Position numbers and translations under genes: made by a program | Shown here: positions 14,848 to 22,727 of the stretch, in pieces | Layout: every line of letters starts with the position of its first letter | Position numbering within the stretch: the first letter of the stretch is position 1 | Assembly: GCA_013203115.1 (NCBI GenBank) | Contig: JABMQW010000139.1 | Location: 33,703 to 97,702 of the forward strand | Length of the DNA stretch: 64,000 nucleotides | Direction: 5' to 3' | DNA from: Fidelibacterota bacterium | GTDB lineage: Bacteria > Fidelibacterota > Marinisomatia > Marinisomatales > TCS56 | The notes under the pieces: model-generated | Told to the model about the DNA's origin: nothing | The model's database searches: none | The model's input: the letters and a program-made list of their open reading frames with translations, nothing else

Positions 14848-15008
14848 CCCCACGCCTGCGTGCCGAAACGCACTTCGGTGTGTAGGCACGGGTGAACCCA
14901 TGGTACCTAAAATTTACGCCTTGTGGGGCAACATCCCGATCCCAGGATGAATTTTGGAATTCATCCACGCCTAAAGGACATGGTATTCTTCTTATCGGGA
15001 TATTTTTT
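14848..15008 (+). ncRNA. candidate structured RNA / recombination-site-like element at the left island border (function unknown)
   Basis: Hairpin 14851-14894 has a C(UUCG)G-capped inner stem, ACGCAC-TTCG-GTGTGT, nested in CGTGCC/GGCACG. A perfect 9-bp hairpin, GGATGAATT-TTGG-AATTCATCC, lies at 14945-14966. That hairpin is enclosed by an ATCCCGAT (14933) / ATCGGGAT (14994) pairing followed by T6 (15003-15008). Confidence 0.3.
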
Positions 15009-15409
15009 ACGAAACTCATGTTCAATAGTCCTGATCAATGTTAAAAATTAATGCGAAAACCTGATCAGATGTTTAGGTTAAGATTGTTAAACGCACCATT
15101 CCTCGAAATCCACTGTTTACCTGCCTATGCAGAAAGCCCCACCGCCCCCCCGGCGCAGGCTGGTACAATAGCGCTCTACATACTGGTCATTGGCGCGATT
15201 TGCAATCTGGTCCGTACTGGGATAAATTAGTTTATGTTTAATTGGTTCAATGCATTGATATTAGGGTAAGCAGGTTAAAATTACAGGTGAATGGCAGCGG
15301 ATTAGTCAAACATGGAAAGAAAAAAAAATTTCCAGCTGTAGGGGTGATATGAGTCAAAATTTTCCACATATTGACACTGTTAGCCAGGCAATCTGAAATT
15401 CAAGCAAGC

Positions 15410-16133
15410 ATGAGGATGGTAAGAATGACACAAGATCAACCAATTGTACCATTTGACTGGTTCGCAAATCAATTTACGTTCGAAAGCCGGGAGGAATTCA
15501 TTGATCAGGTAAGCCCTTATCTAAGATCATTTATAAAAGTAGGTGATTACGCGCTGGATCTTTGTTGTGGCGCAGGTCCTATTGCTTTCTTTCTAGAAGA
15601 TCAAGGAGCACACGTCACTGGAATTGATCTTGCTCCATCACTGATTGCTATGGCGCGTCAAGAAGCTATCAAGCGTGGTTCTCGAGCCGCTTTTATTCAC
15701 GCCAGTGTTCTAACTCATCCACTGGGGAACGGTGTGTATGACCTGGCAGTGTGCTTTGGCAATGCCATCCTTGATTTTCCCCACCAGAGCTTTCCCCAGT
15801 TTCGAGACCGAGTATATCAGGCATTAAAATCCCGGGGGCGCTTTGTCATTGAGTACAGAGATGGGTTATTGAGAGTAGCACACATGAGTGAGCCGAAAGA
15901 AGTGATTGAACAAGGTTTGGATAGTCAGATCTTGCGACGCTTTTAAAGAATACGATCCCGTAATGAGCGCTCTTAAGATGGAGTATCGTCACCTATTAAG
16001 CAATGAGACTTATGATTATACAGGATACATATACACTGGGCCGTTGATACGAATTGTACTGGAAGCAAGGTTTGAGTTAGAACGATCGATCCAGTTAGAA
16101 AAGAGTTTTGTGGATGTGTATGTCAAACGATAA
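15410..16133 (+). pseudogene. class I SAM-dependent methyltransferase split by a 1-nt frameshift in a T4 run (15941-15944)
   Basis: The LDLCCGAG SAM-binding motif I is in ORF 15371..15946. ORF 15906..16133 continues the same protein if one T is removed (..QILRRF-KEYDPVMSALKMEY..). I favour the ATG at 15410 over the track's TTG at 15371. Confidence 0.6.
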
Positions 16134-16374
16134 AATAAATGGTAATAATCTTACAGTTCGTTTGGTGAGTAGCTGGCTAATAAAGGCTTAGAGCTGACTC
16201 ACACGCAGTGTAGTGCTTGAGGAGAATGATGAAGCAGGATACACGGAATTTACAAATCGATGCTATGTCGAGAAGCAGCTCAAACGCAGGACGTTAGGCC
16301 GGTTCTGCTTAGATTAAGACATTAAGCAGCATAATACGAATAAGGAATTAGAACTACAATTTACACTTGAGGAA

Positions 16375-16896
16375 ATGATGAATTTTTATGAATTGATAAG
16401 AAGAAGAGAAAGCGTCAGGGATTATGACCCAAACAAGACAATTGATGATACTGTTTTAAATCGAATATTGAATGCGGGAAGATTGGCTCCATCAGCATCC
16501 AATATGCAACCTTGGATATTTCTACTTGTTTCATCAAAAGAGAAACTCGAAAAAGTACGGGCATGCTATAAAAAGTCGTGGTTTCAACAAGCTCCTCATA
16601 TTTTGATAATAATTGGAGATACAACAAAGTCTTGGATTCGGTCGTATGATGGATACAATTCAATTGAAACTGATTTAACAATAGCCATGGATCATATTAT
16701 TTTGGCAGCGGAATATGAAAATATTGGTACATGTTGGGTTGAAGCATATGATTTGAAAATACTATCCGATGCTATTTCTCTAAAAGAAAACGAGGTAGTA
16801 TTTTCGATCACTCCTTTAGGATATCAAAATAAGGGATATCAAAAACTGGGTAAAAAAAAGAGAAAGCCTTTAGAAGAAATTATAAAAATAATTTAA
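16375..16896 (+). CDS. nitroreductase-family flavoprotein
   Basis: 173 aa with RRSVRDY and APSASNMQPW motifs typical of the NfsB/NfnB-like nitroreductase fold. The sequence is visibly AT-rich relative to its neighbours. Confidence 0.85.
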   Translation: MMNFYELIRRRESVRDYDPNKTIDDTVLNRILNAGRLAPSASNMQPWIFLLVSSKEKLEKVRACYKKSWFQQAPHILIIIGDTTKSWIRSYDGYNSIETDLTIAMDHIILAAEYENIGTCWVEAYDLKILSDAISLKENEVVFSITPLGYQNKGYQKLGKKKRKPLEEIIKII

Positions 16897-21505: not shown

Positions 21506-22040
21506 TATCGAGCAAACCGTCAGAAATAAATGGTATTAAACCCCAGGGCAAGCCCTGATGCCTCCTCCGACCTGTCCGCCGAAGCTCGAAGAGCGTAGGC
21601 GGGAAGCAGCGGGGATTGGCTATTTCTGACCTTGATGGGACTGAATATTCATGGAGAGTTCATGGCACTACGGCTGACTATTCAATTACACTACCTGAAT
21701 TACCGCAAACATTCCTTGATAAATATCCTGGAATAAATCGAGATGATTTTACTCTCCTGGGGATCAGTATATATGTCCAAGATGAGTTTGAGTCGCAGGA
21801 TGAAGTCATTGAGTAGACCTTCGAAGCAGGCAAATATTTTTACAATTTATAAAGTGAACAACTTCACTACTTCAAAGGGAACCCCGATCTGTAAAATATC
21901 TCGTTACCACAACAGAGTATCGTCCCTTACTCCTGAACTCTGATGATTGTCATTCAATGTTGGATAAAAAGAACTTACAGTGCACAATTGAAGAACTTAT
22001 AGAAAGGTTCGCAAGAAGGATTGTGCAGAATAAGTGCGGT

Positions 22041-22102
22041 ATAACATAATAAGAGTTAGCAACTGACGGAGCGTCAGCTTGCCTGCCTGGCGGCGGACAG
22101 GC
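22041..22102 (+). repeat. 62-nt structured direct repeat, copy 2
   Basis: ATAACATAATAAGAGTTAGCAACTGACGGAGCGTCAGCTTGCCTGCCTGGCGGCGGACAGGC. Most substitutions relative to copy 1 fall in hairpin loops or adjacent unpaired positions and the stems are retained. It overlaps the stop of a 30-aa ORF. Confidence 0.85.
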
Positions 22103-22319
22103 AACTCAGGGTCATGCTGAGCAAAAGTGAGTATTCTATTTGGAGTTTATATGGAGTCCCAGGGGTGAACCCGTAGTTCCATTATCCGCCCGTCTTTGCC
22201 ATCGGCTTCAATGCGGTTATATACCAGAGTTTCCTATTCTCCACACTCTGAGCAACTATGAGGCACGCGGGGTGACATCACGACGTAGCACAGATTAATG
22301 TGGACCCCAAAAACCCCTA

Positions 22320-22727
22320 TTAGCAAATGGAGTGAATATTCGAATTTTTAATCAGGCTAAGCTGTCTGATCATATCTATTTTAGTTATCGGTTTTTGCAA
22401 AATAGCATCAACTTCCAAATGTTGAATATTTTCCTTATGAATATTATTCGATGTGATAATGACAATCGGATTTGAGAAACCGCGTTTCCGTAATTCTCTG
22501 ACAGCATCAATACCATTTCTAACGGGCATATTAATATCCATAAAGATCAGTTCCGGCTGATGAACTTCGCATTGCTCAATGGCATTTTGCCCTTCGCTGG
22601 CTGATAGAATAGTGCCAGCATACTCCCGTTTCAGGAAGTATTGATAAAGCTTGTTGACTGAATTATCATCCTCGACAATCATTATTGATCGATTGTCATT
22701 ATTGTTTATATTGTAGTTAGGTTCCAT
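22320..22727 (-). CDS. stand-alone CheY-like response regulator receiver
   Basis: 135 aa with the IMIVEDD acidic pocket, phospho-acceptor Asp in LIFMDINMP, a conserved T/S (IVIITS) and K (LQKP). There is no output domain. Its start overlaps the stop of the upstream TPR gene (TAATG). Confidence 0.85.
   Translation of the reverse strand: MEPNYNINNNDNRSIMIVEDDNSVNKLYQYFLKREYAGTILSASEGQNAIEQCEVHQPELIFMDINMPVRNGIDAVRELRKRGFSNPIVIITSNNIHKENIQHLEVDAILQKPITKIDMIRQLSLIKNSNIHSIC

Follow-up and report, generated by a model that had tools for sequence, protein, structure and literature searches.

The stretch analyzed here is a 64-kb window of a contig from a Fidelibacterota (Marinimicrobia) metagenome-assembled genome (MAG), and the element in question is a block at 15.0-22.3 kb. 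As originally predicted, the window is mostly minus-strand, with 49 of its 56 large open reading frames (ORFs) in that orientation, and its remaining genes are housekeeping ones (fab, sucCD, ccm, mcm, dxs, pdx, nqr, and nuo). The ORFs and their Pfam matches agree with the predicted plus-strand succession of a split S-adenosylmethionine (SAM) methyltransferase gene, a nitroreductase gene, a SET-domain protein gene, and a gene for a 1226-aa type IX secretion system (T9SS) cargo protein, followed by tiny ORFs. This plus-strand run (14450-21505) also includes rpmB, itself on the plus strand. The cargo protein contains choice-of-anchor D, HYDIN-Ig, FG-GAP, LTD, and Por_Secre_tail domains. Past its gene, the 814 nt from 21506 to 22319 contain no ORF longer than 66 aa, and the segment 21613-22040 probably consists of decayed units. 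The block spacers are 138-247 nt long and bear repeats. Consistent with the original prediction, no integrase or transposase was found among the window ORFs (no Phage_integrase match in 56 ORFs), and no tRNA or tmRNA was found in the 64 kb.

The block is an accessory region, variable between conserved flanks, because a sister species (L215 and L216; L numbers denote related contigs and loci) carries other genes between the same flanks and has the SET gene alone in common. The SET protein of this species is 93% identical to that of the window at the amino acid level and the flanks are 88-94% identical at the nucleotide level. In L215, a gene for a 773-aa NagB-like protein is followed by a 101-aa ORF, an S8 peptidase gene with a T9SS tail, the SET gene, a cluster of seven cytochrome genes on the opposite strand, and the response regulator and tetratricopeptide repeat (TPR) genes. 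By blastn, L215 and the window share nucleotide homology only at 15012-15378, at 16993-17606 (93.5%, the SET unit being the sole one in common), and from 22312 onward, where it resumes at 93.9% and runs through the response regulator and TPR genes. Position 22312 is the right edge of the variable region, which makes the edge originally proposed at 22320 correct to within 8 nt. The presence/absence variation raised by the original prediction was thus found, with mostly different genes in L215 and no conserved gene order.

Other relatives extend this picture. The contigs L227-L230 show a third arrangement next to the 773-aa gene, and more distant relatives carry unrelated genes upstream of the 773-aa gene. 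The T9SS gene is found in other contexts in two further relatives, L227 and L224, with homology spanning window positions 17733-21505 in the former and 17816-21506, confined to the ORF, in the latter. Units have been gained, lost, and moved between close relatives. Taken together, the contig comparisons indicate that the block is natively flanked by the 773-aa nagB-like gene to its left and by the response regulator gene to its right.

In L227-L230, the order is ackA, pta, and the 773-aa gene (minus strand), a T9SS ortholog (86% amino acid identity), a 349-aa ORF (minus strand), 155 nt of spacer, and a different methyltransferase gene. The 349-aa protein is an integron integrase, matching NCBIfam TIGR02249 over its full length with 422 bits (cutoff 265; E 1e-126). 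The spacer separating intI from its first gene in L227 contains, some 130 nt upstream of the start codon of intI, a stretch (10375-10435) with 88.7% identity to window positions 15323-15384; intI is divergent from this stretch. The T9SS gene and intI of L227 occupy the place of window positions 15121-15322. L215 keeps the same stretch up to ...ATTGACACT. All three loci carry ...CCACATATTGACA and then diverge at or just after a G/TT core (the slash marks the cut), which reads G15379/TTAGCC in the window and G/TTAGCA in L227. Such divergence is attI-like, i.e. the behavior expected of an attI site followed by different first cassettes.

The core motif recurs within the block. Seven copies of GTTAGSC occur in the 64 kb, five of them on the plus strand, and three of these five (at 15379, 16293, and 17015) precede by 20-82 nt the three consecutive ORFs of the methyltransferase, nitroreductase, and SET proteins, delimiting units of 914, 722, and 714 nt, sizes typical of cassettes. 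By our own estimate, the chance of finding three of five plus-strand copies in three such short intervals is about 1e-6, a value to be read with the post hoc refinement of the motif in mind. The organization is that of a cassette array, with co-oriented, compact, mostly single-ORF units encoding unrelated products, except for the atypical T9SS unit of 3.8 kb.

The T9SS unit starts at G17729/TTCCACATAA in the window, with GGGG before the cut, and its junction in L227 reads CTG/TTCACATAA. The L227 joining site is empty in the window (CACTG15115/TTTACC) and in L215. At genomic attG sites, insertion by IntI reportedly involves cleavage at G/WT (bioRxiv 10.1101/2022.09.11.507474). The L227 junction resembles such insertions in that the unit stands at a G/WT site that is empty elsewhere; it differs from them in offering a single junction, since intI follows and the other end is not interpretable. 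The junction sequence agrees with G/WT cleavage and is also compatible with illegitimate recombination at a 3-nt microhomology. Upstream of the T9SS gene, L227 has about 200 nt more than the window (4989-5191), part of which resembles internal modules of the repeat family A described below (CGCCTGCCCTGTAGCGAAGCGTACTGGGG).

We consider the block to be the variable part, i.e. the cassette array, of a chromosomal integron platform whose integrase is absent from the locus, and we give this interpretation, drawn from sequence comparison, a probability of roughly 0.6. The cassette mechanism, of the type known as CALIN (cluster of attC sites lacking an integron integrase), is the best supported one because an integrase and attI-like homology are found at the orthologous locus. 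In such a scheme, the integron platform of this Marinimicrobia clade would adjoin the 773-aa nagB-like gene, and its putative remnants in the window would be the attI-like stretch, the methyltransferase, nitroreductase, and SET units, each starting from GTTAGSC, the 3.8-kb T9SS unit, and about 800 nt of decayed sequence, with D1 and family A repeats throughout. IntI-type recombination at G/TT sites, given an available integrase, probably moves the units, and recombination or insertion at hairpin repeats probably contributes.

Table 1 Features of the block and its flanks (window coordinates).
Feature	Position	Strand	Remarks
GNAT acetyltransferase, shortened to 102 aa	14058-14366	-	Flank, outside the variable region
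rpmB (ribosomal protein L28)	14450-14686	+	Pfam Ribosomal_L28, E 6e-28
rpmB terminator	14710-14735		Hairpin with 11-bp stem, then T-run
Repeat R (family A), 160 nt, structured, dispersed	14843-15003	+	Synteny break point
Non-coding leader	15004-15322	.	Common to L004 and L215; L227 has 15010-15120 only (blastn of L215 and L227)
attI-like conserved stretch	15323-15385	+	Ends in core G15379/TTAGCC (cut after G)
Unit 1, 914 nt, class I SAM methyltransferase, frameshifted	15380-16293	+	Pfam Methyltransf_25, E 1e-15
Methyltransferase ORF pieces	15371/15424-15946 and 15906-16133	+	
Candidate degenerate attC of unit 1	16175-16299		By eye: R'' GGCTAAT, L'' GAGCTG...CAGCTC, R' GTTAGGC
Unit 2, 722 nt, AT-rich, nitroreductase ORF 16375-16896	16294-17015	+	Pfam Nitroreductase, E 5e-27
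Candidate D1'-type element of unit 2	16946-17021		R'' GCTTAAC to R' GTTAGGC
Unit 3, 714 nt, SET-domain protein ORF 17035-17577	17016-17729	+	Pfam SET, E 1e-14
D1a	17574-17635		Overlaps SET stop codon; part of E3
E3	17574-17737		D1a plus inverted family A end; tandem hairpins
Unit 4, GC-rich, T9SS cargo ORF 17825-21505 (1226 aa)	17730-21505	+	
E4, short-form GC-rich repeat (GC 0.649)	21536-21612	+	After the T9SS gene
Tiny-ORF stretch, 66-aa ORFs 21616-21816 and 21743-21943	21613-22040	+	No Pfam match
D1b, second full D1 two-hairpin module	22041-22102	+	Fold z -2.5
E5, short-form family A without 14-bp core hairpin	22149-22312	+	Resembles L165 element
Response regulator, conserved right flank	22320-22727	-	Pfam Response_reg; beside TPR gene in L215 too

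Several results weigh against this interpretation. By definition, a CALIN has no intI but two or more attC sites (Cury et al. 2016, PMC4889954), i.e. imperfect R''-L''...L'-R' hairpins of 57-141 nt on one strand. R' cores (GTTAGGC, at 16293 and 17015) and R''-like boxes (GGCTAAT and GCTTAAC) are suitably placed in the two candidates; by eye, L boxes pair only in the candidate at 16175-16299, and the R''/R' pair of the candidate at 16946-17021 is the sole intergenic match to the strict consensus. Neither of the two best candidates folds better than shuffled sequences (z about 0 to +1; +0.6 to +1.1 for that at 16946-17021). Strict RYYYAAC...GTTRRRY pairs are rarer in the window than in shuffles (3 versus 7.0 ± 2.8), an ad hoc R-box/L-box scan gave no excess over shuffles and did not pick up the candidates of the block, and an R''/R' closing stem is missing from the folds of the candidates and of D1, which forms two tandem hairpins. 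The GTTAGSC motif was refined after the data had been seen; the a priori consensus GTTRRRY matches two of the three sites, with a p value of roughly 0.004. No intI or intI remnant was found in the 64-kb window (tblastn with the L227 IntI, best E 1.7), in keeping with the definition of a CALIN, and around 95% of CALINs are without a recognizable intI pseudogene nearby (Cury et al., PMC4889954). The T9SS unit is unusually long for a cassette and, in L227, its gene stands on the 3' side of intI, outside the expected array position. The segment replaced in L215 is an opposite-strand cluster of seven genes, not a cassette. It follows that the locus changes by events unrelated to integrons as well. 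Finally, the L227 assembly lacks the array that would follow intI and, with it, the real attC sites of that lineage. The likeness to a cassette array or CALIN noted in the original prediction hence received strong, if indirect, backing from the IntI at the orthologous locus, the attI-like stretch, and the cores, while canonical attC sites could not be demonstrated; on sequence grounds, canonical attC folding, and hence formal CALIN membership, is unproven. A perfect inverse core, GCCTAAC, the complement of GTTAGGC, lies on the plus strand inside D1a (17618-17624), and no matching R' partner was found downstream of it.

The repeats of the block, which the original prediction had already seen as motifs shared by long spacers, belong to two types. 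The D1 modules D1a and D1b are 89% identical, a partial, decayed copy lies at 16949-16970, and shuffled sequences gave 0 matches. More D1 copies are present in L215 and L032, just past the stop codon of a co-oriented ORF wherever the upstream ORF is identifiable, a placement seen in three species. Two Logan contigs (L013 and L014) end inside D1b, at 22052-22053. The second type, a modular family that we call family A, comprises R, E3 (inverted), E4, and E5, and all its members in the window lie within 14.8-22.3 kb. Its termini are conserved, with TGGAGCCCCAC at the 5' end and GGGATAAA or GGCGGATAAA at the 3' end, and are weakly inverted; between them are optional internal hairpin modules, one of which is a 14-bp core hairpin, GCCTGCGTGCCGAA-ACGCAC-TTCGGCGTGCAGGC. 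A 22-mer of this core hairpin, CCCACGCCTGCGTGCCGAAACG, is found in more than 120 contigs (L095-L214) of many metagenomes. A second family A subfamily forms tandem arrays with variable inserts. E4-like copies (82-84% identical) occur near the pta/ackA-773-aa gene region of L215 and L227; that of L215 (82% identical to window 21524-21615) is within a rearranged stretch (3440-4490) in which part of pta-ackA has been lost and a 23S_rRNA_IVP-family gene is found.

R folds with -57 kcal/mol (z -3.05) and is present in at least two copies per genome, in the rpmB-ftsZ spacer and in the spacer between the 773-aa and methyltransferase genes. The orthologous L215 site is without R and has 10 nt in its place, and R is absent from L227 as well. 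Comparison of filled and empty R sites revealed no clear target-site duplication, and there is no transposase in the loci examined. R, E3-E5, and D1 are multi-copy, short, structured, non-coding, and polymorphic for presence, like miniature inverted-repeat transposable elements (MITEs) and repetitive extragenic palindromic (REP) sequences. Rfam searches of the window and of 20 related loci at the gathering threshold, and of 14.6-15.45 kb by E-value, gave no match to R, D1, or family A. In seven R-type elements, RNAalifold supported 0 pairs by compensatory changes; without covariation, a function of R at the RNA level is unsupported. By eye, one compensatory hairpin change was seen in R (CATCCC/GGGATG versus CATCTC/GAGATG). 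The motif ATRTGGARYCCC was considered and rejected as not significant on its own. Literature searches returned nothing relevant on the core sequence of the repeat or on MITEs in Marinimicrobia. In their behavior, the family A elements are MITE/REP-like invaders of the variable region, and it is plausible that they promote rearrangements, among them that at the left junction of the window.

These repeats are central to the main competing explanation, namely a generic flexible hotspot without any integron mechanism, in which illegitimate or homologous recombination at MITE/REP-like repeats replaces the cargo and the IntI of L227 is a passenger or an In0. Repeats stand at all unit boundaries and at homology breakpoints, e.g. 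the L215 homology stops within D1a, at 17606. The E4-like copy of L215 marks another rearranged spot, R is a presence/absence insertion between species, the post-stop position of D1 in three species is that of REP-type 3' elements, and the variable gene content upstream of the 773-aa gene in distant relatives and the lack of a canonical attC would be natural for such a hotspot. However, this very locus encodes a bona fide IntI in L227-L230, divergent from a stretch that is conserved in the window, GTTAGSC cores precede three consecutive ORFs, and the units are co-oriented and cassette-sized. We therefore regard a hotspot of this kind as a possible but less probable account than the integron platform. 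Overall, the block is judged to be a flexible hotspot or a chromosomal integron that lacks its integrase and is probably decaying.

A bolder version of the integron interpretation would take the D1 modules, and perhaps family A too, as a non-canonical, multi-hairpin attC class used by the Marinimicrobia IntI, with a working array that includes the 3.8-kb T9SS gene, an integrase encoded elsewhere or supplied by relatives, and an rpmB junction that is a real inversion in the population; we think this version unlikely.

The left boundary of the block differs from what was first proposed. The original prediction described an island inside a minus-strand core, between rpmB and the regulator genes, and this part had to be abandoned. 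The order murB-ftsA-ftsZ, rpmB, GNAT, Dus, and Aldh is kept in about 45 related loci, which indicates that the rpmB-ftsZ adjacency is conserved across the phylum (the window belongs to Marinimicrobia according to its flanking Dus protein, with 81% identity to that of the closest species representative). L001 and L002, two contigs from the same population, match the window over 2985-15002 with 99.85% identity and then continue into ftsZ and the dcw cluster, without the block. Conversely, L004 is collinear with the window over 14838-32727, as are L005, L006, and L012 over the parts they cover, and to the left of the block it carries the 773-aa nagB-like gene with pta and ackA. The rpmB-side and block-side contig groups overlap at 14843-15003, i.e. 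in R, where assemblies also break, L005 and L006 starting and L003 ending there. Among contigs with flanks of about 99.9% identity, R is only 85-94% identical, and the R copy of the window is a mosaic, resembling the rpmB-locus copy in its 5' part and the 773-aa-locus copy in its 3' part, with unique substitutions in the middle. The window junction of rpmB, R, and methyltransferase (near 15003) was seen in no other contig among the related contigs compared.

Based on these comparisons, the join to rpmB is judged not to be the native context of the block. Because the junction is unique, lies within a dispersed repeat, and interrupts a conserved rpmB-ftsZ adjacency, it is either an artifact of chimeric assembly or a strain-specific, repeat-mediated rearrangement in which two copies of R recombined. 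If the R copies were inverted on opposite replichores, a real inversion would keep the observed strand bias. An island truly inserted between rpmB and the response regulator cluster of a collinear core is very improbable. The window sequence is unbroken over 14.8-15.1 kb and the rpmB-Dus neighborhood does contain inserts of 3-9 kb in L032, L071, L076, and L092, but past the block there is no return to ftsZ, and the window remains collinear with L004, L011, and L012 over their reach (14838-32727). Furthermore, both parental junctions, rpmB to ftsZ through R' (the R copy at the rpmB locus) and the 773-aa gene to the methyltransferase through R, exist in the same population, the 773-aa flank is common to two sister lineages, and the window copy of R is a mosaic of R' (5') and R (3').

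R is hypervariable (14870-14960; L001, L004, L005, and L006) in strains that are otherwise 99.9% identical, and in L005 only it contains a 24-nt module, ATGTACTGAACGCAGTGAATGTGA. In other Marinimicrobia (L032, L071, L076, L092, L018, and L065), the ftsZ-rpmB-Dus interval is a hotspot in its own right and carries insertions of 1.4-9 kb. The L032 insert (1000-4500) has a D1-type module at its end, 8 nt past an ORF stop codon, and also holds a duplicated 5' fragment of the Dus gene and a DUF559-like remnant.

The compositional heterogeneity noted by eye in the original prediction was confirmed by computation, and the block contains both extremes of the window. The nitroreductase gene has the lowest GC content of the 56 genes (32.4%, z -3.4; 24.7% at third codon positions, GC3), and the T9SS gene the highest (50.4%; GC3 55.3%, z +2.9). 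The six most deviant 2-kb tetranucleotide windows all fall within 15.5-21.5 kb (maximum z 4.7). The block spacers, with 40-45% GC compared to 23-35% for most other spacers, amount to 37% of the intergenic DNA of the window in 12% of its length. The T9SS ortholog of L224 (83% identical) is likewise GC3-rich (0.51 versus 0.37-0.45 in its neighbors); the signal therefore belongs to the gene and is no proof of recent import. Further long or GC-rich spacers outside the block (51225-51764, 29470-29705, and 39355-39639) were noticed in a word scan only; that at 29470-29705 holds two GCCTGTC words.

As for decay, the alignment to PDB chain 1ve3 of the conceptually joined methyltransferase runs over the split point, and the split is seen in all contigs of the population that carry the gene (L004-L007); both observations indicate a fixed frameshift. 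An ordinary core operon of four functionally linked genes, with mere noise behind their heterogeneity, is scarcely credible: the genes are co-oriented, and a methyltransferase and a SET gene are neighbors in the unrelated genome L217, but SET alone is common with the 93% identical sister species, the methyltransferase gene is a fixed pseudogene, the spacers are 138-247 nt long with repeats, and the compositional z-values range from -3.4 to +2.9. The L217 methyltransferase, considered as an intact homolog of that of the window, proved unrelated (tblastn).

Decayed genes had also been proposed for the edges of the block, which holds for the split methyltransferase and for the 102-aa GNAT ORF as such, whereas the latter lies in the flank and not in the variable region. 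The GNAT orthologs of L016 and L019 are 160 and 152 aa long and end at the start of the Dus gene, which rules out a conserved gene of about 100 aa; the Pfam GNAT match to the window ORF is weak and covers only profile positions 24-78. In a scan for promoters and terminators, the rpmB terminator was the sole result above chance, with promoter models that exclude promoters of the FCB (Fibrobacterota-Chlorobiota-Bacteroidota) type.

The T9SS gene is a frequent assembly end point: L007, L009, and L010 end near 18.43 kb (18427-18436), and L006, L008, and L012 at 19.84-19.99 kb (19835-19990). These six contigs come from three Logan runs and two JGI metagenomes, and their ends suggest strain-level hypervariability or internal repeats (FG-GAP). 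The 16-mer AAATAAATGGTAWTAA occurs directly after the methyltransferase stop codon (16133-16148) and again 19 nt past the T9SS stop codon (21524-21539), with E4 directly next to it; the pair may represent a filled and an empty site or a common 3' motif. The 66-aa ORF at 21616-21816 is annotated as a gene in JGI contigs. The SET protein family is very widespread and tightly conserved in bacteria, with hundreds of homologs of 165-185 aa and 62-73% identity, one of them from Ignavibacteriales.

Compared with known CALINs and integrons (PMC4889954), the block is similar in its units, which are 0.7-0.9 kb long, mostly of a single ORF, alike in orientation, unrelated in function, and mixed in composition, in its G/TTRRRY-like cores at unit starts and attI-like stretch, and in the divergent IntI that a relative encodes at the orthologous locus, the window itself being without integrase or pseudogene. 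It differs in that the attC hairpin (R''-L''/L'-R') is not demonstrable and the post-ORF D1 elements form two tandem hairpins, in having one unit of 3.8 kb and an invasion by another repeat family, and in its host, a Marinimicrobia MAG. Our literature searches retrieved no report of integrons in Marinimicrobia/Fidelibacterota.

The pangenome literature also describes flexible genomic islands of marine bacteria, either replacement or additive. The block shares with these its conserved flanks (the 773-aa gene and the response regulator and TPR genes) with differing cargo in L215 and a third arrangement in L227, its deviant composition, its surface or secreted cargo, and its metagenome assembly breaks; it is, in contrast, small, has sharp unit edges at a short core motif, and has a relative with an integrase. 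These sharp boundaries and the integrase of the relative point to a site-specific mechanism over plain homologous replacement. Unlike a tRNA-integrase genomic island, the window has no tRNA, no integrase, and no bracketing direct repeats beyond the dispersed family elements. Family A and D1 resemble REP, bacterial interspersed mosaic element (BIME), BOX, and MITE repeats in being short (60-330 nt), GC-rich, hairpin-forming, multi-copy, modular like BOX, presence-polymorphic between species, intergenic just past stop codons, and prone to break assemblies. Family A differs from them in that clear terminal inverted repeats and a target-site duplication could not be established and no associated transposase or REP-associated tyrosine transposase (RAYT) was seen, and by its optional 14-bp core hairpin, with an identical 22-mer in so many contigs and no Rfam match.

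The block, whose single-gene units change fast, resembles a gene-swapping site of a known kind, the cassette side of a chromosomal integron without its integrase. In this MAG contig, two distant chromosomal regions meet at a 160-nt dispersed repeat, and conclusions based on the synteny of the contig are unsafe until the junction has been verified. The modular hairpin family, widespread in metagenomes and without Rfam match, deserves a separate study. If our interpretation is true, the locus would be a chromosomal integron platform in uncultivated Marinimicrobia/Fidelibacterota, with integrase-bearing and integrase-less states in sister lineages. Together, the window, L215, and L227 offer a natural three-way comparison of unit gain, loss, and movement at such a locus and of its later decay.

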